From the NCBI GenBank assembly GCA_040389125.1, contig JAZKAN010000001.1, positions 178,737 to 242,736 on the forward strand: 64,000 bases of DNA, read 5' to 3'. The number at the start of each line of letters is the position of its first letter. Position 1 is the first letter of the stretch. Both the position numbers and the translations under genes were made by a program. Below are positions 3,653 through 55,505 of the stretch, piece by piece. The notes under the pieces were generated by a model. That model did not search any database. It saw only the letters and a program-made list of their open reading frames with translations, and was not told the origin of the DNA. This DNA is from Patescibacteria group bacterium. GTDB lineage: Bacteria > Patescibacteriota > Minisyncoccia > Phycocordibacterales > DATDWN01.

Positions 3653-4163
3653 GGTAAGTATGATATCAAATAGTGAGGAGAAAGTACATATGAACAACAC
3701 GATACAGGAAGTACAGCAAGCTGCTCTGAAATTGAAAGGGCTTCAGGCTGAGAACCGCCTTTATAAGGCAGGTAAGCCGAAAGAATTGACCACCCTTGCT
3801 TACGCTCTCATAGGCATGCTGGCGGGAAACTTCGCTTGCTACGGGAGTGTGGGAAATGAATCCAGCCGCTCCGAAATCGAAGAATTCATTGCTGAGGCAG
3901 TCGAATTCGCCGGGACTTTCGAGGACAAATCCACACCACTTTCCAGCATAACTTTGAGTATGTTAGAAGAGATATTCGTGGACGCGATGACTGCCAACCC
4001 CTCGATTCCAAAGATCAGGATAACCGAACCAACCTTGCGAGCCTTACACACACTCGGGGTGAAACTCATTAATGTTCCAACTATGGCAGCACATCATTTG
4101 ACAGAGGCGAAAATCGGCGGAGTTACGCTTCAATGTAAGAGCTCGAAGCCTTTAAAGTTCTGA
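3651..4163 (+). CDS. hypothetical protein
   Basis: 170-aa ORF (alternative start MNNTIQEV at 3690). No recognisable domain. Divergently overlaps the uvrC start and is followed by a clean terminator. Confidence 0.5.
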   Translation: MVSMISNSEEKVHMNNTIQEVQQAALKLKGLQAENRLYKAGKPKELTTLAYALIGMLAGNFACYGSVGNESSRSEIEEFIAEAVEFAGTFEDKSTPLSSITLSMLEEIFVDAMTANPSIPKIRITEPTLRALHTLGVKLINVPTMAAHHLTEAKIGGVTLQCKSSKPLKF

Positions 4164-4176
4164 CGCGAACCTTCCC

Positions 4177-4212
4177 ATGCCACGGCGTCTCAGCGCGCCG
4201 TGGCATTTTCCT
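4177..4212 (+). terminator. intrinsic terminator
   Basis: Stem atgccacggcg / cgccgtggcat, 8-nt loop, followed by tttcctttt. Confidence 0.7.
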
Positions 4213-4242
4213 TTTCCATCACAATATTTCGAGATTAAAAAT

Positions 4243-4354
4243 CTCCCTACACACATGCTTTTATGGCGCATCACGGACTGCATGAAGACAGGAGTGCGAG
4301 GAAAATTTTCAGCAGAAAATTATTCCGGCGACAGAAAAGTATGTGTGTAGGGAG
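4243..4354 (+). repeat. family-A palindromic element, copy 1
   Basis: Conserved ~75-nt core GCGCATCACGGACTGCATGAAGACAGGAGTGCGAGGAAAATTTTCAGCAGAAAATTATTCCGGCGACAGAAAAG, closed by a 14-22 bp copy-specific inverted repeat (ctccctacacacat / atgtgtgtagggag). Other copies are at 25130 and 55361. Confidence 0.8.
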
Positions 4355-4362
4355 ATTTCAAC

Positions 4363-6999
4363 CTACCCCTTCCTATACGCTTTATACTGTTTCAGCGCCC
4401 GCTTCAAATACTTTCCCGTATACGACTTCTCACTATTTGCAACCTCCTCCGGAGTTCCCTTTGCGACGAGCTGTCCACCACCGCTCCCACCCTCTGGACC
4501 AATATCCAAAATATAATCAGTGGATTTGATCATGTCCATGTTGTGTTCAATAACGAGCACTGTATTTCCTTTATTCACCAATTTCTGCAAAATCTCAATC
4601 AGTTTTTTCACATCTTCGTAGTGAAGTCCGATCGTCGGTTCATCAAGAAGATAAATTGTTTTCTGTAAATGCGGACGATACAACTCTGACGAAATTTTGA
4701 CACGCTGCGCCTCACCACCAGAAAGTGTCGTTGCAGACTGACCAAGCTCGAGATAGCCGAGACCGACGTCATCAAGACATTTGAGGCGGTCGTAAATAGC
4801 AGGAATGTCTTCAAAAAATGTGAGCGCCTCCTCCACTGTCATTTTGAGCACATCATAAATATTTTTCTTTTTGTATGTGACCTCGAGAGTCTCTTTCATA
4901 AACCGCTTGCCCTTGCACACGTCACACGGCACATACACCGTCGGCAAAAAGTGCATTTCAACTTCGATCATGCCATTTCCCTGACACGTCTCACATCGTC
5001 CACCCTTTACGTTGAATGAAAATCGATTTGCCTTCCATCCACGTGCACGAGCCTCGACAGACTCTGCAAATAGGTCACGAATAAAACTCCACGACCCTGT
5101 GTATGTTGCGGGATTCGATCGCGGTGTGCGTCCGATCGGAGACTGGTCAATGAGTATTGCACGACCGAGATACTCTGTGCCAGTAAATGTTTTACAGTTA
5201 TAGATTTCTGCACTGCGATATTTGCGTTCAAAACGTGCCTGAAGGTTTCGGTGCAAAATCTCGTACACAAATGACGACTTGCCTGAGCCAGACACACCAG
5301 TCACTGCTACAAATTTACCGAGCGGTATGTCTACGTTTAGGTTTTTAATATTAAAGATTTTGCCTCCGCGTATTTGCAGGCTTCCCTTTTCACCCTCACG
5401 ACGGTTTTCAGGCAACTCTACTATTTTGTCCCCACGCAAATAGTCGAGCGTGAGAGACTCGGATGTATTTTTCTTGGCTGTAAGTAACTCATCGAGATAC
5501 CCAGAAACAACCACATGTCCACCGTGAACACCGGCGCCTGGACCAATATCAACAATATAGTCTGATGCAAATATTGTGTCCTCATCGTGTTCTACTACAA
5601 TAATAGTATTGCCGAGATTTTTTAAATCAATAAGTGTTTGGATGAGACGATCATTGTCACGTGAATGGAGTCCAATCGTCGGCTCGTCGAGTACATAGAG
5701 TGCTCCTACCAGTCCCGATCCGAGCTGACTTGCGAGACGAATACGCTGAGCCTCCCCACCCGAGAGCGTGTGGGCACGACGGTTGAGCGACAAATATTCG
5801 ATTCCTACGTTTATCATAAATTTGAGTCTCGCTTCGATTTCCCGCATGACTACTTTTGAAATATTGATTTCTCGTTCTGTCAGTTTCAAATTCATAGCAA
5901 AATCGTACGCGTCTTTTATAGACATCGCTGTAAACTCTACTATATTTTGCCCACCGATTGTTACATGAAGTGCCTCCTCGCGTAGTCGTGCGCCGTGACA
6001 TTTTGGACATGGTTCCTTGCCGAAAAAGTGACGAGTACCCAAACCATTACATTCGGGACACGCACCATATGGCGAGTTAAATGAAAACAATCGAGGCTCT
6101 ACCTCGGGATATGAATAGCCGTCCTTTGGACATGAAAGTTTTGAAGACATAAAAAATTCTTCGGGAACATATCCTTTTACAGATTCCTGTGCCATATCAC
6201 GAACAAGTATTTTAACTTGTCCGTCGGATTCCAAAAGCGCCTTTTCTAGATCCTCCGACAGTCTCTCCTCTGCACTTTTACTATCTGTACCAAAATCGAG
6301 AAGTGAAATACTATCCACGAGCACGTCTATCGTGTGTCGTTTTGTTTTTGTCAGTACTATCTGCTCTCGGAGAGATTTTCGCACACCATCTACAAGTACA
6401 TGCGAGTAGCCTTTGCCGAGTAGATCGTAGAGGAGCTGGTAGTATTCACCTTTTCGTCCTTTTACTACTGGTGCAAAAATCTCGACGTAAATAGGAAATG
6501 GGATTACCTTGCTTAATTTTTTGTACTCGACTTGCTTGATAGCGATTTTTTCAAGCACAAAATTTTTAATTTCTTCATTTGAAAGTTTTTTGATTTCATC
6601 TCCACAGATGAGGCAGTGTGGATGCCCAATACGCGAATACATGATACGCATGTAGTCATAGATTTCTGTAATCGTTGCGACAGTTGAGCGTGGGTTGTTT
6701 GAACGTGATTTCTGATCGATTGAAATAGCTGGTGAGAGCCCAGATATTTCGTCCACATCCGGTTTTTGCATTTGACGGAGAAACTGTCGTGCATACGATG
6801 ACAGTGACTCGACATATCGTCGCTGCCCCTCTGCAAAAATCGTATCAAATGCAAGTGATGACTTGCCTGACCCAGACAGACCAGTAAAAACCACCATTTT
6901 ATTTCGTGGTATTTCAACAGTAATATTTTTGAGATTGTGAGTCCTAGCGCCTTTTACGACAATCTGCTCCTGGGAATTTATAGTCTTTTTTGGTGTCAT
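4363..6999 (-). CDS. uvrA: excinuclease ABC subunit A
   Basis: 878 aa with two ABC ATPase modules ([14 protein letters not shown]..., [10 protein letters not shown]) and zinc-finger Cys motifs. Confidence 0.95.
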
Positions 7000-7098: not shown

Positions 7099-9171
7099 TT
7101 ACGCTAACAAATCTTTTGCGTTCTTGGGATTTTTTGACTTCTCAACTTTCGGCACAATATTCATTTTTTCAAGCTCTACAATCTCATCTCGCAGGAGTGC
7201 TGCTGTTTCAAAGTCGAGGATTTTAACAGCACCATCCATTTGTTTTTCTTTCTGCACAATCAACTTTTTCAACTTCTTTGGATCTTTTTTCAGTATATTC
7301 TTGTCTATTGCCAGGAGTTCATCCACCGCCTTGCCATGTTCACTGCGTAACTGATCCGTAATATCCTGAATTTTCTTTATAATTGTTTTTGGAGTGATCC
7401 CGTGTTTTGTATTGTACTCCACTTGTATTGCTCGTCTGCGACTTGTCTCCTCTATCGCCCGTTGCATTGAACCCGTCATGCGATCTGCATACAAAATCAC
7501 TCGGCCATCCACGTTGCGCGCGGCACGTCCTATGATCTGAATGAGAGATGTGTCGGAACGCAAAAATCCTTCTTTGTCTGCGTCGAGAATTCCGATGAGT
7601 GTCACCTCGGGCAAGTCGAGCCCCTCTCGCAGAAGATTCACACCGACGAGTACATCAAACTCGCCACGACGTAGCGAAGTCAAAATTTCAATACGCTGTA
7701 TAGTTTTAATATCACTGTGCAGATACTCTGCACGAATTCCCTTTTCCTTTAGGTATTCACTCAAATCCTCTGCCATCTTTTTGGTCAGTGTCGTTGCAAT
7801 CACACGTCCGCCTTTTTTGACAGCCTTTTCTGTTTCAATAATAAAATCTGTAATCTGTCCAGGAAATTTGCCTTTCTCGACGATTGGCCGCACCTCTACC
7901 ACAGGATCAATAAGGCCAGTTGGACGAATAATCTGCTCAACTATTTGTTCACTGTGTTCACCCTCATACACACCTGGTGTTGCAGATGTGTAAATAACTT
8001 GCCCCACTCGTTCTTCAAATTCTTCGAATTTCAGCGGTCTGTTGTCCTTGCTACTTGGCAGTCTAAATCCAAAATCAACAAGGGATTGTTTACGTGACGC
8101 ATCTCCTGCATACATTGCGCCGATCTGTGATACTGCCACATGCGACTCGTCGATAACCGTCAGAAAATCTGGGTTGCCGTCTGCCTTGTGGGGAAAATAC
8201 GAAAGCAGTGTATCTGGTGCCTCGCCCGCGAGTTTACCAGAAAAATGTCGTGAGTAGTTCTCGATACCATTGCAGTACCCCATCTCGCGAATGAGTGCGA
8301 GGTCGTATGTTGTGCGACGTTTGAGACGCTCTGCCTCGAGAAGTTTTCCATCGCTATCTAGTTCCTTGAGTCTCGCAGTTAGTTCTGCTTTTATTGTTTC
8401 AAACGCTCTCTCACTCTGAGCTTTGGTAGATATAAAATGCTTTGCCGGAAAGAGAAAAAAGACTTCAACGTTTTTTATTATCGCTCGCGTGATTGCATCA
8501 ATAACCAAAACTTCTTTTATTTTGTCACCATCGATTTCGATACGATAAATGACTTTCTCTGAAATCGGCATGATCTCGAGCATGTTTCCAATGGCACGAA
8601 ACTGTCCCGGCGAAAGGTCTGCAGTGGTACGTTCAAAATGAATATCAATAAGTCGTCGAATGAAATCTGCGCGAGAAATTTTCTCACCCACTGCAACTTT
8701 TAAATTCACTTTTTCATACTCAACTGGTGAGCCAAGACCGTAGATACATGAAACAGATGCAACAATAATAACGTCTCGACGTGTGAGAAGTGCCTGTGTG
8801 GATGCATGACGCAAACGATCAATCTCTTCGTTGATCATTGCCTCCTTTTCTATATATGTATCAGAGACTGGCATGTACGCCTCTGGCTGGTAGTAGTCGT
8901 AGTAGGAGACAAAATAATGGACCTCGTTGTTCGGAAAAAACTCTCTGTACTCCTGAGCGAGCTGTGCAGCAAGAGTTTTGTTGTGTGCAATGACGAGTGT
9001 TGGCTTCTGAACTTCCTGAATTACATTTGCAATCGTAAATGTTTTACCAGATCCTGTCACGCCAAGGAGAGTCTGATGTTTCAGACCATTTTTTACACCA
9101 TCTACAAGTTTCTCGATGGCCTGTGGCTGGTCACCTGCAGGCTCAAAATCCCGCTTGATCTCAAATTTCAT
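7099..9171 (-). CDS. uvrB: excinuclease ABC subunit B
   Basis: GVTGSGKTFT helicase motif I, beta-hairpin region and C-terminal UVR domain. Start at MKFEIKRDFEPAG; the ORF to 9291 is over-extended. Confidence 0.95.
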   Translation of the reverse strand: MKFEIKRDFEPAGDQPQAIEKLVDGVKNGLKHQTLLGVTGSGKTFTIANVIQEVQKPTLVIAHNKTLAAQLAQEYREFFPNNEVHYFVSYYDYYQPEAYMPVSDTYIEKEAMINEEIDRLRHASTQALLTRRDVIIVASVSCIYGLGSPVEYEKVNLKVAVGEKISRADFIRRLIDIHFERTTADLSPGQFRAIGNMLEIMPISEKVIYRIEIDGDKIKEVLVIDAITRAIIKNVEVFFLFPAKHFISTKAQSERAFETIKAELTARLKELDSDGKLLEAERLKRRTTYDLALIREMGYCNGIENYSRHFSGKLAGEAPDTLLSYFPHKADGNPDFLTVIDESHVAVSQIGAMYAGDASRKQSLVDFGFRLPSSKDNRPLKFEEFEERVGQVIYTSATPGVYEGEHSEQIVEQIIRPTGLIDPVVEVRPIVEKGKFPGQITDFIIETEKAVKKGGRVIATTLTKKMAEDLSEYLKEKGIRAEYLHSDIKTIQRIEILTSLRRGEFDVLVGVNLLREGLDLPEVTLIGILDADKEGFLRSDTSLIQIIGRAARNVDGRVILYADRMTGSMQRAIEETSRRRAIQVEYNTKHGITPKTIIKKIQDITDQLRSEHGKAVDELLAIDKNILKKDPKKLKKLIVQKEKQMDGAVKILDFETAALLRDEIVELEKMNIVPKVEKSKNPKNAKDLLA

Positions 9172-14366: not shown

Positions 14367-14960
14367 TCAAAAATTTGTTCCACACACTCCATCTGCCCAA
14401 AGTCCAAGTTTTTGAACACGAGCATTGTCTTGTGCCTTTTTAAATTCCGTTTGAAATAGGTATGGTATGCGGTATGTGTATTCGTATGCGTACCCCTCTG
14501 CAACCATTACTTTATTTACAAATGTTCCGTCTGGCAGATACACGTATCGCAGGAGTCTCCCGTATTTATCACGATCTGTTTGCGTTTTATCTCCCTTCAG
14601 AAAAACCTCCATTCCTGTCACGAGTTGCTTCATCTTGTTCGATGCGTCTATACCAAAACACTGAACGGGTTTCCGTGGATCTACAGTCTCTGGTGTATTA
14701 ATTCCAATCAGTCGCACTTTTTCTTCAGCTCCATCATCCATAGTCACAACAATAGTATCCCCATCTATTACACGCACGACATCTACTACACCTGGAATGT
14801 GGTTGTGGACAGTGCTTGTTGCACTATTTTCTTCAATATCTATTACTCTAGGAACAACACTTTGAATTACCGTACCAGTTTGATTGATCTGTACACTCTC
14901 CCGCAGGTACAACAAAATCGCAATCGAAAGTAGTACAACCACAGTTGTTAATCTCTTCAT
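14367..14960 (-). CDS. thermonuclease (staphylococcal nuclease-like), secreted or anchored
   Basis: Signal/TM N-terminus and SNase core (VIDGDTIVV...RLIGINTPE...GRLLRYVY...AEGYAY). Confidence 0.85.
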   Translation of the reverse strand: MKRLTTVVVLLSIAILLYLRESVQINQTGTVIQSVVPRVIDIEENSATSTVHNHIPGVVDVVRVIDGDTIVVTMDDGAEEKVRLIGINTPETVDPRKPVQCFGIDASNKMKQLVTGMEVFLKGDKTQTDRDKYGRLLRYVYLPDGTFVNKVMVAEGYAYEYTYRIPYLFQTEFKKAQDNARVQKLGLWADGVCGTNF

Positions 14961-14970
14961 ATAAATGAAA

Positions 14971-15579
14971 TTAAAGTTCTGGCGTATTCTCTATTTTTGC
15001 TTTTCGAGTTTTAACAATATATTCAATCGCAGACGGGAGAACAGAAATAAACACAATGCCAACAATAATCGGGGTGAGATATGAAGTTGCATTTGGAATT
15101 GCTTTGCCCAAATAGAATCCGACTAGTGTCATCCCTCCGGCCCAAAACACTCCACCAATGAATGTGTAGCGAACGAATTTTTCATATTTCATTTTGGCAA
15201 TACCAGCGAGCGTCGGTGCGAAACTGCGTACTATCGGCACAAACCGACCAATAATAATCGTTTTTGCACCGTATTTATCAAAAAATTCCTGCGTATAATC
15301 AATGTATTTTTGTTTGAAATATTTAGAATCTTTTGTAAAAAATTTCTTCACTATGTAGTGACCGAGTGAGTAGCTAAATAGGTAGCCGAGAACCGCAGCA
15401 ATAAAAATAACAAGGATGAGAATGTCGATACGCAAAATTCCCTGCGATGCCAAAAATCCTGTTGTAAACAGGAGACTGTCGCCAGGCAGAAAAAGTGTCA
15501 GCGGAAATGACTCGAAAAATATGATGGCAAATAGACCAGGATAGCCAATTTTTTGTACCAGTGCGATGAGAGATTCCAT
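14971..15579 (-). CDS. DedA family membrane protein
   Basis: FFESFPLTLFLPGDSLLFTTGFLASQGIL DedA signature. Start at MESLIALVQKIGYPG; the ORF extension to 15741 runs through the GC-rich palindrome and is rejected. Confidence 0.85.
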   Translation of the reverse strand: MESLIALVQKIGYPGLFAIIFFESFPLTLFLPGDSLLFTTGFLASQGILRIDILILVIFIAAVLGYLFSYSLGHYIVKKFFTKDSKYFKQKYIDYTQEFFDKYGAKTIIIGRFVPIVRSFAPTLAGIAKMKYEKFVRYTFIGGVFWAGGMTLVGFYLGKAIPNATSYLTPIIVGIVFISVLPSAIEYIVKTRKAKIENTPEL

Positions 15580-15594
15580 GAGGGGTAGTATAGC

Positions 15595-15708
15595 ACAAAA
15601 TCCCGTGCATATGTTTTTAAAACACGGCGTCGCTCGGGGCACTCGCGCGCCTCGCTCTCGGGCCGTCGCCCTGCGTACGGTTTTAAAAACATATGCACGG
15701 GATTTTGT
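15595..15708. repeat. 114-bp palindrome: 29-nt perfect AT-rich arms around a 56-nt GC-rich core
   Basis: Arms acaaaatcccgtgcatatgtttttaaaac / gttttaaaaacatatgcacgggattttgt. The core carries the direct repeat CTCGCTCGGGG...CTCGCTCTCGGG. Confidence 0.9.
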
Positions 15709-15727: not shown

Positions 15728-15772
15728 GAAAAAACCGCCACTCACCTGAGAAAGCGCGAGTGGCGGTTTTCT
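15728..15772. terminator. bidirectional intrinsic terminator
   Basis: AAAAAACCGCCACTC...GAGTGGCGGTTTTCTTC, with A-run and T-run flanks. Confidence 0.6.
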
Positions 15773-16075
15773 TCAGCGATGGCGATTTAGTTTGAAGGGT
15801 GTGCAGTAAAGTACAGCTGCCTAAGACTAAGAGTACTTTGATCACCCCATACCCCATCAGGTACAAACTCACTGGTGTGACATTTGGAGTCGCGGATGAT
15901 GCGTTGGATACCTTCGATATGAGGTTTCGGTGCGCCTTTGAGGTGAGTATCGACAGCTGACGGTCCGACATCCTGTCCATGCAGAAGGATTGCAAGAATG
16001 ATCTGCCATACTCGAAGTGCTTCAATCTGTACCGTTGCCTGTGTACTCAAAATCTTTCTCCTTGGGAAACATCCC
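15773..16075 (-). ncRNA. candidate ncRNA or very short-ORF unit of unknown identity (~345 nt including terminator)
   Basis: Bounded by two bidirectional terminators, with a sigma70-like promoter (TTGACA-N16-TAATCT) on the minus strand. GC is above the local average. Only overlapping ORFs without ATG/RBS support. Confidence 0.25.
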
Positions 16076-16081
16076 GACCTT

Positions 16082-16109
16082 AGATTACTCACAATTTCTG
16101 TTCTGTCAA
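16082..16109 (-). promoter_or_regulatory. sigma70-like promoter TTGACA-N16-TAATCT (minus strand)
   Basis: Minus-sense gttgaca gaacagaaattgtgag taatct, immediately downstream of the helicase terminator. Confidence 0.4.
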
Positions 16110-16141
16110 CAAAACAGCATACCATCTTTGGTATGCTGTTT
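16110..16141. terminator. bidirectional intrinsic terminator
   Basis: AAAACAGCATACC-ATCTTT-GGTATGCTGTTTTG. Perfect 9-bp stem flanked by A4 and T4. Confidence 0.65.
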
Positions 16142-25085: not shown

Positions 25086-25129
25086 GGGAATAATAAGTTG
25101 AATAATTTAAAATCAAAATTCCTCGAAGA

Positions 25130-25221
25130 CATATGTTTTTCAGCGCATCACGGACTGCGTGTAGACAGGAGTGCGAGGAAAATTTCTAGCAAGAAATTAT
25201 TCCGGCGATGAAAAACATATG
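25130..25221 (+). repeat. family-A palindromic element, copy 2
   Basis: Same core as 4243-4354. The outer stem here is catatgtttttca / tgaaaaacatatg. The internal hairpin shows a compensatory swap (TTTCT-AGCA-AGAAA against TTTTC-AGCA-GAAAA). Confidence 0.8.
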
Positions 25222-25245
25222 TCGAGAAAGAATTTTGATTTTAAA

Positions 25246-26709
25246 TTATTTACTGAGATCAAGTATGTCATCTATACGTATCTGTTTTACAAACTCCGGC
25301 ACGTGACTGACCAATATCATCGCCCCCTCATATTTATCAAGTGCCTCGGCAATTATCGGCAAATGTCGAAAGTTTATATGGTTTGTTGGCTCATCGAGAA
25401 TGAGAAGTCCTGGTTTCTGTAATACAAGTCGTGCAAATGCGACAAGTCCTTTTTGACCCTCTGACAGACTCCCAATTTTTGAATATATTAGTTCGCCAGT
25501 GAGAAGAAATCCAGCTGCAGTTGAACGCAAAGTTTCTTCCACCAATTCGTGCATGACTCCAGCGAGAGAATCGTACACCGTATCCTCGAAATTAAGTGTT
25601 GAGAAATCCTGTCTGTAGTATCCAACCCGAATACCTGGAGCAATAACCGTACCGTCGCTTGTACCGCTCGCGAGGGATTCAAGAAGAGTACTCTTGCCAA
25701 TACCATTTGGACCTGCAAGCAATAAATGCTGTTTTTTTCGAAGTGTTATATTTACCTTGCGTGCCACAGGTTTATGATCCTTTATCATCTTGAATTTGGT
25801 AATGGCCAAAATATCACCATTTATATCTGGCTGTGATGGAATAATAAATGATCGGATCGTTTTATCCTCACGACGGACATCTACTTTTTCCTCTTCGAGT
25901 TCCTCAGCCTTTTCACGCATACGACGTGCCACAAGTCGCATCTGACCACCCTTGTTTGCAAAAAAGTTTGCCTTGTCTTTATTCTCTTGAATTTCCTTTG
26001 CAAGCAACGCATTTTTTCTATTTTCTTTTTCTATACGTGCAGAAATATCTGCTACTACATCAAAATAGTTTCCAACATATTGTTCTACTTTGCGAGTAAA
26101 CACATCCAAATACAACACACCTTGTGTAAAACTATTTAGAAACTCCGCATCATGTGAAATTACAATGCATGTCTTTTTGTAATCCACAAGAAATTTTGTA
26201 AGGTGTTCAATCCCATCTTTGTCAAGATTGTTTGTAGGCTCATCGAGAAGCAACAGGTCTGGATCTTGAATAAGTGCAGATGCAAGGAGAAGCCGCGCTT
26301 GTTGTCCACCAGAAAATGATTTGACGATACGATCGTGTGGAGCATTTAGATTTACCACCTTTAGCACCGCATCTATTCGAGGTTCGATATCATATATTTT
26401 TTTGTCTGTTTTGTTTTTGAAACTGTTTTCAAAATATTCTCGTACAGTCATTTCGAGCTCATTGCGAGGAATCACCTGACGAGCTGTAGCGATGGAGAGA
26501 TGCTGTGCAATATTAATTACACCAGACTCTGGTTTGTGTGTTCCTGTGATAAGACCAAAAAGAGTGCTTTTACCGGCACCATTTTGCCCCATAATTGTGA
26601 ATTTTGCTCCTCGCCGGAGCGTAAAATCAACTTCATCCAAAATTGGTTTTTTGATTCCGAAGTCAAATGAGACTTTATCAAAACTGATTATCGTTTCTCC
26701 CCGTGGCAT
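25246..26709 (-). CDS. ABC-F family ATPase (tandem ABC domains, no TMD)
   Basis: Two Walker A boxes (GQNGAGKST, GPNGIGKST) and two signature motifs with a linker between them. Start at MPRGETI. Confidence 0.9.
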   Translation of the reverse strand: MPRGETIISFDKVSFDFGIKKPILDEVDFTLRRGAKFTIMGQNGAGKSTLFGLITGTHKPESGVINIAQHLSIATARQVIPRNELEMTVREYFENSFKNKTDKKIYDIEPRIDAVLKVVNLNAPHDRIVKSFSGGQQARLLLASALIQDPDLLLLDEPTNNLDKDGIEHLTKFLVDYKKTCIVISHDAEFLNSFTQGVLYLDVFTRKVEQYVGNYFDVVADISARIEKENRKNALLAKEIQENKDKANFFANKGGQMRLVARRMREKAEELEEEKVDVRREDKTIRSFIIPSQPDINGDILAITKFKMIKDHKPVARKVNITLRKKQHLLLAGPNGIGKSTLLESLASGTSDGTVIAPGIRVGYYRQDFSTLNFEDTVYDSLAGVMHELVEETLRSTAAGFLLTGELIYSKIGSLSEGQKGLVAFARLVLQKPGLLILDEPTNHINFRHLPIIAEALDKYEGAMILVSHVPEFVKQIRIDDILDLSK

Positions 26710-29715: not shown

Positions 29716-29785
29716 TTATACCTCACAAATACAACTAAAACGAATCAAATTGCCTCAGATGCTAGGCCTGTAAGATTTTGAGAGT

Positions 29786-29844
29786 GAGCCGTACTTAGTG
29801 GTACGGTGAATGATCAAAATTGAAACACAACAACGCAGATGAGG
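29786..29844 (+). repeat. GUAC-hairpin element (family B/C) copy
   Basis: GAGCCGTAC-TTAGTG-GTACGGTGA...AACGCAGATGAGG, located between the FNR-like stop and the msrA start. Confidence 0.8.
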
Positions 29845-29858
29845 TAATTTTATTCGTT

Positions 29859-31370
29859 TTAGGCAAAACCTGGGAAAAAGTCGATCTTGATATGCTTAAC
29901 TCCCATTTGTTTTAATGTTTTTTCAAACATAGCGACCATACTATGCGGCCCTGATATATAAAATTGTCGTTCTGCAAAATCTGGAATTTCCGCACGTATC
30001 ATGTCTGCAGTAATAAATCCCTTGCGAAATGAGGGCGGAAGTTCACTCGGCACATCGTCAGTAACTGCATATACCGTGCGAATATCGAGCGTCTCCTCTG
30101 CTATATCAAATATATCTTTGTATGCAATATCCTGCATCGTGCGATTTGAATACAGCATGACCACATCACGTTTTTCTTTCATATCAATCATGTATTTGAC
30201 CATGCTACGAAACGGTGTGACTCCGATACCACCTGCAATGAAAACTAGTTTCTGTGTTGTATCATGTGGCAATGTGAAATTTCCGGCGAGTTGTGATGCT
30301 ATGATAGTGCCTCCTGTTGGAATCTGTCCGAGTGCTAGTTTGAAACTACTCGACTGTTCGTAAAATTTGATACCGAGACGAATATCACTTTCTGTCGGGG
30401 ATGATGATAGAGTAAAATATCTACGGTTACCGCGCGTATCCATATTGTCGTGACCAAGTGTCCACTCCATGTATTGTCCAGGTCTATACGGAAAACGTTT
30501 TTCTAATGTAAACACAAATTCATCTGTATCTTTTGCTATTTCCTTTTTATCTTTTAGAGTCAAAATCGTTCTAATCTTTGGGCTGACTATATACGAAAAA
30601 ATATTTCCAAGAATAAGTGCAAGTTGTGGTGTTGAATACACTGATCCAATATGAAACTGGAGTCCAAAAAGTACACCAACAATACCACCATATACCACCT
30701 GTAAATTCAGTGATGGAGGAGTGGTGAGAGGTTCAGTAAGCATGACTGCGCCGAAAAAGACAATTGGTCCTGAGAACAGAATACTATTTAGAATTTCTAA
30801 AACTGGTATTCCGTATGTAAGACCGGTAATAGTAGAAACAATAATCGCTGGGATAAAGAAACTAAAAAAAAGTGTGAATCTGCGAGTTTTGCGAAGTGTG
30901 AGAAGTCCCAACACAGTGACAACTGGAAGCAGAACGCTACTACCAACCCACCATGAAAATCCAGTTACACCAAATATTCCCAGGAGAACAATACTAATCG
31001 CAACAGGATTAAAAATATGTTTCCGGTTAATATTAAAAATATATTTTGAACCCATCGCGAGCACCCCAACAACTATGTATAACAAAATATCCGAGTATGT
31101 AGTGAGTGGTGTCAATATAAAAAACAAAATAATGCCCGTAATCCACTCTGACTCAGCATTGCGTGGCACACCGAGAAATAATGCAAAGAGTTTGTTTGAT
31201 AAGTAACACACTGCGAAAATCAAAACGAGAGAATACAGGAGGTGTAAACCACTAAATGTGAGTATACCAAGAAATCCAAAAACGATTGAAATCAGTGCAA
31301 GAATACAGAGGCTATAGAGAGCAACTCTATACATAGTAATCTTATTTAAAAAGGTATCTATTGGATTCAT
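29859..31370 (-). CDS. polytopic membrane protein fused to an FNR-like FAD/NAD(P)-binding oxidoreductase domain
   Basis: About 8 TM helices in the N-terminus. The C-terminus has RRYFTLSS (RxY[ST] FAD motif) and LVFIAGGIGVTPFRSM (NAD-binding GGxGxxP). No His set for heme. Confidence 0.75.
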   Translation of the reverse strand: MNPIDTFLNKITMYRVALYSLCILALISIVFGFLGILTFSGLHLLYSLVLIFAVCYLSNKLFALFLGVPRNAESEWITGIILFFILTPLTTYSDILLYIVVGVLAMGSKYIFNINRKHIFNPVAISIVLLGIFGVTGFSWWVGSSVLLPVVTVLGLLTLRKTRRFTLFFSFFIPAIIVSTITGLTYGIPVLEILNSILFSGPIVFFGAVMLTEPLTTPPSLNLQVVYGGIVGVLFGLQFHIGSVYSTPQLALILGNIFSYIVSPKIRTILTLKDKKEIAKDTDEFVFTLEKRFPYRPGQYMEWTLGHDNMDTRGNRRYFTLSSSPTESDIRLGIKFYEQSSSFKLALGQIPTGGTIIASQLAGNFTLPHDTTQKLVFIAGGIGVTPFRSMVKYMIDMKEKRDVVMLYSNRTMQDIAYKDIFDIAEETLDIRTVYAVTDDVPSELPPSFRKGFITADMIRAEIPDFAERQFYISGPHSMVAMFEKTLKQMGVKHIKIDFFPGFA

Positions 31371-55281: not shown

Positions 55282-55360
55282 GACGTTCTGTATAGTATAA
55301 ATGTTTTTGAAAAAAGTACAAACCACATACACACTTCTGTTGATTTTGAATTCTCTTTCT

Positions 55361-55457
55361 CCCAAAAGCTTTTCTGTCGCCGGAGTAATTTTCTGCTGAA
55401 AATTTTCCTCGCACTCCTGTCTACATGCAGTCCGTGATGCGCCGGAAAAGTTTTTGG
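55361..55457 (-). repeat. family-A palindromic element, copy 3 (inverted orientation)
   Basis: The reverse complement carries the same core, CCGGCGCATCACGGACTGCATGTAGACAGGAGTGCGAGGAAAATTTTCAGCAGAAAATTACTCCGGCGACAGAAAAG. The outer stem is ccaaaaacttttc / gaaaagcttttgg. Confidence 0.8.
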
Positions 55458-55505
55458 TCGACGAGATTTCAAAATCAAAAAAACACCTTGCGGTGTGCTT
55501 TTTGT

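Follow-up and report, generated by a model that had tools for sequence, protein, structure and literature searches.

A long palindrome upstream of dedA in a Patescibacteria genome, read from sequence comparison as a copy of a dispersed hairpin family of the Parcubacteria group

The window analysed here is a stretch of 64,000 nucleotides from the metagenome-assembled genome (MAG) of a Patescibacteria group bacterium (assembly GCA_040389125.1, contig JAZKAN010000001.1, positions 178,737 to 242,736), and the element under study is a 114-bp palindrome at positions 15595-15708 of this window. Comparison with other genomes indicates that the palindrome is one GC-rich copy of a hairpin family dispersed in genomes of the Parcubacteria group (Patescibacteria, or candidate phyla radiation, CPR). 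The surroundings are those described in an earlier, sequence-only reading of the DNA: the palindrome lies upstream of dedA, which is followed by an SNase gene, xseA and xseB, all on the minus strand. Along this strand the order is a DEAD-box helicase gene, an open reading frame (ORF) of 112 aa, a terminator, a 22-nt spacer, the palindrome (15708-15595), the dedA promoter and dedA itself, which encodes a VTT domain and begins with an ATG at 15579. The terminator hairpin with A and T tracts that had been noticed beside the palindrome does exist, at 15731-15770 on the minus strand, but it is outside the element and was assigned to the upstream 112-aa ORF; it is an intrinsic terminator with a 13-bp perfect stem and T6 after it. 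On the other side of the palindrome, at 15577-15595 on the minus strand, an extended -10 element (TGcTATACT) is followed by 7 nt and the ATG of dedA, and the T of its TG is the last base of the palindrome arm. The same arrangement (TGn, a TAnnnT -10, exactly 7 nt and ATG, with no Shine-Dalgarno sequence) precedes dedA in the window and in four related loci, namely L002:121-140, L068:19479-19498, L075:278-297 and L074:1239-1258. Since this arrangement recurs in four relatives, the dedA mRNA is probably leaderless and started from a promoter of the extended -10 type. The palindrome is placed between the upstream terminator and this promoter, so little transcription is probably to be expected across it.

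The palindrome itself is real. Its 29-nt arms (15595-15623 and 15680-15708) are 100% complementary (29/29) and are separated by 56 nt. It had been argued that arms of this length rarely arise by chance, and 100 dinucleotide shuffles gave 0 matches. The arm sequence occurs at only these two places in the window, even when 3 mismatches are allowed. The core is GC-rich as had been said, though at 78.6% G+C and not the estimated 75% or so; the arms have 31% and the window 41.8%. The imperfect direct repeat inside the core (TCGCTCGGGG / TCGCTCTCGGG) was also confirmed. No second copy of the GC-rich core was found in the window, and blastn against phages and plasmids gave no match to the palindrome; given the absence of such matches, it is not a known insertion sequence (IS) terminal inverted repeat. 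RNA folding of either strand gave -65.6 to -67.3 kcal/mol (z = -7.6 to -8.9 against shuffled controls), and DNA folding of the single strand gave -43.3 kcal/mol (z = -10.3). In an independent Logan assembly (L001; run SRR26324622) the whole region is identical base for base, with the core in the same orientation.

The window was scanned for inverted repeats and the other hairpins with centres of 56-73 nt were taken up. It was found that the window holds three further copies of the family, all with an e-type core. The second copy (4239-4358, plus strand) lies immediately 3' of the uvrA stop codon, the third (25101-25250, plus strand) lies between the stop of an ABC-F gene and the start of a YgjP-like gene, and the fourth is at 55335-55483 on the minus strand. 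These three have a near-identical 68-nt core and carry the arm motif AAAATCyC...CAyATGyTTTT, which is common to them and the dedA palindrome. Public collections were then scanned for the pattern CATATGTTTTT-N(55-85)-AAAAACATATG. Further copies were present in MAGs of Moraniibacteriota, Taylorbacteria, Minisyncoccia and Paceibacterota, in MAG ELA422 and in lake and groundwater metagenomes. In all there are at least 16 further copies in other genomes and metagenomes of the Parcubacteria group, to which all the named host taxa belong, and a covariance model added seven copies without the exact box. Membership of the window copies was measured with a model, R2, built from 15 copies, all from other genomes and with zero window sequences, and run with filters off. 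On the dedA palindrome R2 scored 62.3 bits (E = 7.6e-13) on the minus strand as against 30.8 bits on the plus strand, where the arms alone matched, and no non-canonical pair was flagged. The other three window copies scored 48-74 bits (57.2, 74.1 and 48.1 bits for the second, third and fourth copy), and the rest of the window never rose above 18 bits. A core-only model gave 50.1 bits for the dedA copy, though this copy was part of that model.

The members of the family are about 90-150 bp long, and each consists of a long, almost strictly Watson-Crick stem that closes a strand-specific three-way junction. From the outside inwards there are the outer arms (consensus CAAAAyTyGTyGArG), a box (often CATATG-TTTTT) and a variable stem, P1. 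The junction begins with a strand ending in (S)AG, followed by a 4-bp hairpin, P2, with a GACG loop (GGGTAG in some copies), and then by CGAR...yGA; the strands on both sides of P2 are rich in G/A. The junction is completed by the hairpin P3, which has 10 bp, a bulged A and, in most copies, a YAGCAR loop, and after which come GT and the complementary arm. The arms end in A and T tracts (CAAAA...TTTTG). The outermost arm sequences vary among copies and the conserved part is internal.

The dedA element can be laid onto this plan along the minus strand. Its 5' arm (15680-15708) reads ACAAAATCCCGTG-CATATG-TTTTT-AAAAC and is identified both by complementarity and by homology to other copies; the outer part, ACAAAATCCCGTG, is homologous to the consensus CAAAAyTyGTyGArG. 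The long stem has the CAyATGyTTTT box (CATATGTTTTT/AAAAACATATG) closing P1. The first junction strand, J12 (CGTACGCA, 15672-15679), ends in the conserved (S)AG and was aligned to the family consensus ..GsGAG. P2 (15660-15671) is GGGC-GACG-GCCC with the family GACG loop, and it is present in the DNA minimum-energy fold. The second junction strand, J23 (GAGAGCGA, 15652-15659), was placed by the family alignment and holds the conserved CGA..GA. P3 (15626-15651) is a GC-rich variant, GGCGCGC...GCG-A-CGCC; its base and bulged A are retained, the AGCA loop is gone, and the apex is GC-rich where a stem normally rich in A/U has been replaced. The GT after P3 (15624-15625) again follows from the family alignment, and the 3' arm (15595-15623), homologous to that of other copies, carries the family box AAAAACATATG and the terminal GGGATTTTGT. 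Around P2 the dedA element reads CAG-GGC-GACG-GCC-CGAG, and by manual count it agrees with the copy at L064:5224 at 20 of 25 positions. With DNA parameters the minimum-energy fold of the dedA element is the family fold, and with RNA parameters the family fold lies 2-5 kcal/mol from the optimum. Judged from this alignment, the GC-rich core is the three-way junction of the family with an unusual GC-rich P3 arm and not foreign DNA, and the direct repeat in it is the 3' half of P3 resembling a partial duplicate of P2/J23.

The helices co-vary. Among the 15 copies from other genomes the proposed pairs are formed in 92.6% of cells, compared with 70.7% in shuffles and 33-55% when the partners are slid by 1-3 columns, and 27 of the 30 pairs show changes on both sides. 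Among 443 modelled pair cells there are only 13 G-T and 7 A-C. An attempt to identify an RNA strand from wobble asymmetry was given up, as neither strand was favoured (24 vs 18 in the outer arms, 13 vs 7 in the modelled helices). One copy in a related genome departs from the general plan. At L075:16799-16873 (minus strand; GCA_964596875.1) there is a core-only copy with the GACG and AGCA loops, the bulged A and a 4-bp P1, but no long arms. It is preceded by a terminator hairpin and followed by T7, and could represent either a full copy that has decayed or a small RNA gene standing on its own.

All copies are intergenic, and their neighbours are housekeeping genes: uvrA, ABC-F and dedA in the window, a type IV pilus cluster in L047, and recA, on both of its sides, in L009. 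The orientation relative to the flanking genes is mixed, with about 10 copies antisense and 5 sense. The window copies are distributed 2:2 on the two strands while the sign of the GC skew is constant across them. The density is uneven. The 64-kb window has 4 copies and a single 48-kb contig of MAG ELA422 has 7, and about 114 kb from five related genomes, fetched by protein homology, contained one copy only. In L022 two copies of different subtypes, at 4298-4385 (+) and 4443-4530 (-), lie head to head between two genes, 57 nt apart, and together make a larger palindrome which recalls the head-to-head dimers of REP sequences (BIMEs).

Empty sites were observed in relatives. The sequence-only reading had listed absence of the palindrome from closely related genomes among its refuting observations, and this result tells against a role specific to the locus: the palindrome is indeed absent from the position upstream of dedA in L002, L068, L074 and L075, all four of which keep the gene order. 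The ABC-F/YgjP gap is 4 nt in L067 (GCA_040384245.1, ABC-F 93% identical) against 160 nt in the window, where it includes the copy at 25101-25250. In L071 (GCA_040384245.1, UvrA 99% identical) no family copy follows uvrA; the gene order changes there, so that this site is not comparable base by base. At L071:3950-3975, also 3' of uvrA, the sequence GTACGAGATTTTC resembles the outer arm of the family, CGACGAGATTTTG; it may be a single arm left behind, or a site preferred as target. Judging by these comparisons, family elements have been inserted, or precisely lost, over times comparable to those in which species diverge. No direct repeat that would represent a target-site duplication is visible at the four window copies, and the relatives are too diverged (7-18%) for the junctions to be placed exactly. 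Two further ideas about the origin of the copies were considered. For this family it was rejected that a mobile core entered an already existing terminator hairpin, as homology between genomes extends over the inner ~26 nt of the arms; a pre-existing hairpin as target is also contradicted by the empty ABC-F/YgjP site, which has 4 nt and no palindrome. With regard to carriage by phages, scans of viral sequences gave one unrelated hairpin and two chance matches, neither of which was confirmed by the family model.

We favour, with moderate confidence, the reading that we have here a mobile but non-autonomous palindrome, that a trans-acting enzyme recognises its folded junction, probably on single-stranded DNA, and that the dedA copy is a bystander insertion. 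Family membership, the co-varying structure, the intergenic dispersal in both orientations and the empty sites are direct observations; how the element moves, what preserves its arms and that it plays no part at dedA we infer, as follows. The element would be selfish non-autonomous DNA, copied in trans by an enzyme that recognises the folded junction, and the substrate would most plausibly be single-stranded DNA, as with REP, attC and the ends of IS200/IS605. Template switching at quasipalindromes, established for E. coli, perfects imperfect inverted repeats during replication. Hairpin-templated correction of this kind, and not selection at the level of RNA, could uphold the complementarity of the arms. 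Template switching could keep arms complementary without selection; therefore covariation alone is no proof of function. The mixed orientation, the 2:2 strand split at constant GC skew and the near-strict Watson-Crick helices together point to a constraint at the level of DNA. At dedA the element would have inserted into the gap, of 22 nt or more, between the terminator of the upstream gene and the extended -10. This copy is probably untranscribed and would have at most an incidental effect, by displacing the AT-rich DNA upstream and by being able to extrude as a cruciform. Of the four possibilities offered by the sequence-only reading, namely a cruciform regulatory site, a protein-binding site, a MITE (a miniature transposable element with inverted repeats) or an insertion scar, it is thus a MITE-like element that is favoured, but with neither conserved terminal repeats nor a visible target duplication it is not a classical MITE.

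Several points weigh against this reading. No transposase or mobilising gene was found, no genome-wide search having been made, and the copies share no terminal inverted repeats and show no target-site duplication, with junctions that cannot be mapped exactly at the divergence of the relatives. The core is conserved across the named Parcubacteria groups with compensatory changes in P2 and P3, as a functional RNA would show, and the arm-less junction in L075 with its T run resembles a small RNA gene. The ends of the element (CAAAA...stem...TTTTG) are terminator-like and many copies lie exactly between a stop and the next start, so a function in termination or processing is possible. Finally, an empty site in a relative could reflect precise loss of the palindrome there and not a gain here.

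The main alternative is a functional structured RNA, which we regard as possible though on balance doubtful. The element could be an intercistronic terminator, an RNase III site or an mRNA protector, or it could be a small RNA with a protein- or ligand-binding junction; the dedA copy would then either act as a second terminator or an insulator placed after the regular one, or be the gene of a small RNA. The strong covariation in all helices would fit this, as would the conservation of unpaired positions (GAG, the GACG loop, CGA, the AGCA loop, the bulged A and GU). From the alignment, and not by computation, GAG...CGAR on the two sides of P2 could pair as tandem sheared G-A. Copies begin 4-33 nt from stop codons, between co-directional genes, the A/T tracts at the arm ends are like those of bidirectional terminators, and T7 follows the core-only L075 copy. 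However, a functional RNA does not agree well with an orientation that is mixed at about 10:5, with G-U pairs that are rare (2.9%) and favour neither strand, or with the empty sites in close relatives, including the 4-nt ABC-F/YgjP junction. In the dedA copy, moreover, the AGCA loop has been lost, and transcription is improbable at its position between a strong terminator and the -10 of dedA. This copy is an ambiguous candidate for an intrinsic terminator: its stem base is CCCGUG/CACGGG followed by AUUUUGU, with only four U, a canonical terminator is already present 22 nt upstream, and a terminator scan made no call at the palindrome. Rfam holds nothing similar. At gathering score Rfam 15 found only tRNA in the window and nothing in the five related loci, and scans at permissive E-values with the dedA element, the copy at 25101-25250 and a typical L064 member gave only chance-level matches. 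The best sub-threshold match, RAGATH-21, was rejected, as it reached 18 bits against a gathering score of 70 with the outer stem alone aligning.

It is conceivable, and to us somewhat more speculative, that the three-way junction is the working part of a new kind of CPR-restricted, structure-dependent element, either a hairpin transposon moving as folded single-stranded DNA or an amplified catalytic or protein-binding RNA. In the RNA form of this proposal the arm-less L075 copy may be the stand-alone gene, and the dispersed copies may have arisen by analogy with short interspersed nuclear elements (SINEs), which derive from small RNA genes.

An affiliation with HUH single-strand transposases appears unlikely. 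Here the element would be REP/BIME-like and moved by a RAYT, or would be a miniature derivative of IS200/IS605 (PATE), and P3, as an imperfect hairpin with an extrahelical base, together with the GACG/GTAG motif would provide the signals for recognition and cleavage. The missing terminal inverted repeats and target duplication and the strand-specific conserved hairpins would agree with this, as would the head-to-head copies at L022:4298-4385 and 4443-4530. The P2 loop is mostly GACG (reverse complement CGTC) and in other copies GGGTAG, and these are the two tags of REP superfamilies (PMC3733652). The REP tag, however, stands at one end of a stem-loop of 20-40 nt and not in its loop (PMC3733652), the present elements are 3-5 times the size of a REP, and beside P3 only GT is conserved. 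The 2:2 strand split at constant GC skew is unlike the lagging-strand bias expected for IS200/IS605, and no Y1 transposase was seen in the fetched loci, in which few genes were examined.

A DNA control site specific to the dedA-nuc-xseAB locus, acting as a cruciform or as the binding site of a dimeric regulator, is highly improbable. The element abuts the extended -10, with the T of the TG as the last base of its arm, and perfect arms of 29 bp would be predicted to extrude a cruciform readily. Yet elements of the same type stand beside unrelated genes, and the dedA promoter is kept without the element in four relatives; the locus-specific role suggested by the sequence-only reading was given up on these grounds. 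Hardly any credence can be given to an invertible phase-variable segment or an assembly artefact: an asymmetric core flanked by inverted repeats would suit inversion, but 56 bp is very short for recombinase-mediated inversion, the Logan assembly is identical in sequence and core orientation, an apparent inverted-core pair (L020/L040) proved to be one contig reverse-complemented, and the element is internal to a 263-kb contig and belongs to a family that recurs in many independent assemblies.

Some other features of the dedA locus may be recorded here. The 112-aa ORF upstream of the palindrome (15787-16125) has no Pfam match, and its counterpart at the same position in L068 has 72 aa. The SNase gene (14367-14960) stands between dedA and xseA in this genome only, dedA being followed directly by xseA in L002, L068, L074 and L075; its presence only here among the compared loci therefore indicates a lineage-specific gain or loss.

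A number of hairpins outside the family were also met. At 29735-29862 of the window, between the stop of a 503-aa gene and msrA, there is an unrelated hairpin with 28-nt arms (86% complementary) and a 72-nt core. It is missing in L067, where the syntenic intergenic region has 27 nt. The outer 17 nt of one arm, including the stop codon, match L067 at 15 of 17 positions by manual count. The other arm looks like an inverted copy of the pre-existing flank, which hints at growth of arms from flanking DNA. L047:8326-8512 holds nested hairpins, an outer 26-nt inverted repeat around an inner one of 29 nt with a ATGTTTTTT box; the inner hairpin has a different G+C-rich core of 58 nt (8390-8447), which the family models do not match. 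The region L064:3900-5530 is 1.6 kb without an ORF above 80 aa. Large hairpins crowd it (4046-4257, 4164-4377, 4445-4634 and 5364-5501), together with two copies of the family and, at about 5071-5145, a short ORF rich in lysine (MAAKKKAKKAAKK...), and nothing in the region reaches an Rfam gathering score. In addition, many metagenome contigs (L019, L020/L040, L025, L033/43/53/57/59/62, L032/36/37/42, L038, L039, L046, L049/50 and L055) carry very long near-perfect hairpins with the CATATGTTTTT...AAAAACATATG box, unrelated cores and outer arms unlike the family consensus, and some of these are multi-copy families in genomes of about 30% G+C. They may represent a superfamily, or they may be a by-product of searching for an inverted 11-mer.

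The single palindrome becomes ordinary once it is placed in its family, and it is the family, with a conserved three-way junction on a co-varying stem, that is worth describing. CPR/Patescibacteria genomes are about 1 Mb and tightly packed. In some lineages they contain one such element of 100-150 bp every 3-16 kb, which is a considerable burden. If it is mobile, it would give a handle on DNA movement in organisms with few recognisable transposons, could serve as a marker of strain-level variation and would be a means by which promoters and terminators are rearranged. As an RNA, it would be a widespread CPR-specific structured RNA. For annotation, the family accounts for several puzzling long palindromes and GC-rich islands in these genomes. 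It is apparently undescribed and, as far as sampled, restricted to Parcubacteria. A full-text literature search gave nothing on such elements in Patescibacteria or Parcubacteria, and the text of a 2024 MITE survey of 183,232 prokaryotic genomes is without mention of these phyla.

Among the known systems, ERIC (IRU) sequences are alike in being imperfect intergenic palindromes of about 127 bp, which occur in either orientation and in copy numbers that differ widely among related genomes, have no known dedicated transposase and form long hairpins if transcribed. Their sequence and hosts are unrelated, however, and ERIC has no conserved three-way junction at the tip, whereas in the Parcubacteria family the arms differ between copies and yet are near-perfectly complementary within each copy. 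Hairpin insertions of 100-160 bp near genes, present or absent by strain, are also found among bacterial MITEs, such as the Correia elements (CREE/NEMIS) of Neisseria, RUP and RPE; these can act as promoters or terminators and can contain RNase III sites. What sets them apart from the present family is that their terminal inverted repeats are conserved, that they duplicate the target (TA for Correia) and that they have a parent IS; in the Parcubacteria elements it is the centre that is conserved and the ends that vary, without a visible duplication or a known parent IS. REP/BIME sequences with their RAYT share structure dependence, strand specificity, compensatory stem changes, head-to-head dimers and GTAG or CGTC motifs. 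A REP is, in contrast, a single stem-loop of 20-40 nt tagged at one end (PMC3733652), while in the Parcubacteria family the motif is in the loop of a 4-bp hairpin within a three-way structure of 90-150 nt, and no RAYT was seen among the few genes checked. Membership of REP/BIME was rejected, as GACG/GTAG is inside the P2 loop of a 114-bp element with three helices.

Integron attC sites, 57-141 bp in size, also conserve structure over sequence; they contain extrahelical bases, and it is the folded single strand that is recognised. They differ in forming cassette arrays beside an integrase and in having conserved outer R boxes (RYYYAAC/GTTRRRY). The present copies are solitary among housekeeping genes, are conserved in the centre and have ends that do not fit RYYYAAC/GTTRRRY, and attC membership was rejected. 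TIGR-Tas guide arrays consist of tandem units with two unpaired spacers beside a Nop-domain Tas gene (PMC12045711). They were rejected as well, the copies being solitary and fully paired with no tandem array. The GC clusters and hairpin repeats of yeast and sponge mitochondria are reportedly similar in being G+C-rich palindromic insertions with a patchy distribution in compact A+T-rich genomes (PMC2800124); the genomes, sizes and sequences differ and the likeness is one of kind only. The Parcubacteria element is a member of none of these systems; by analogy, it would work most like the palindromic repeats of the ERIC, Correia and RPE type, with a structure dependence like that of REP and attC.

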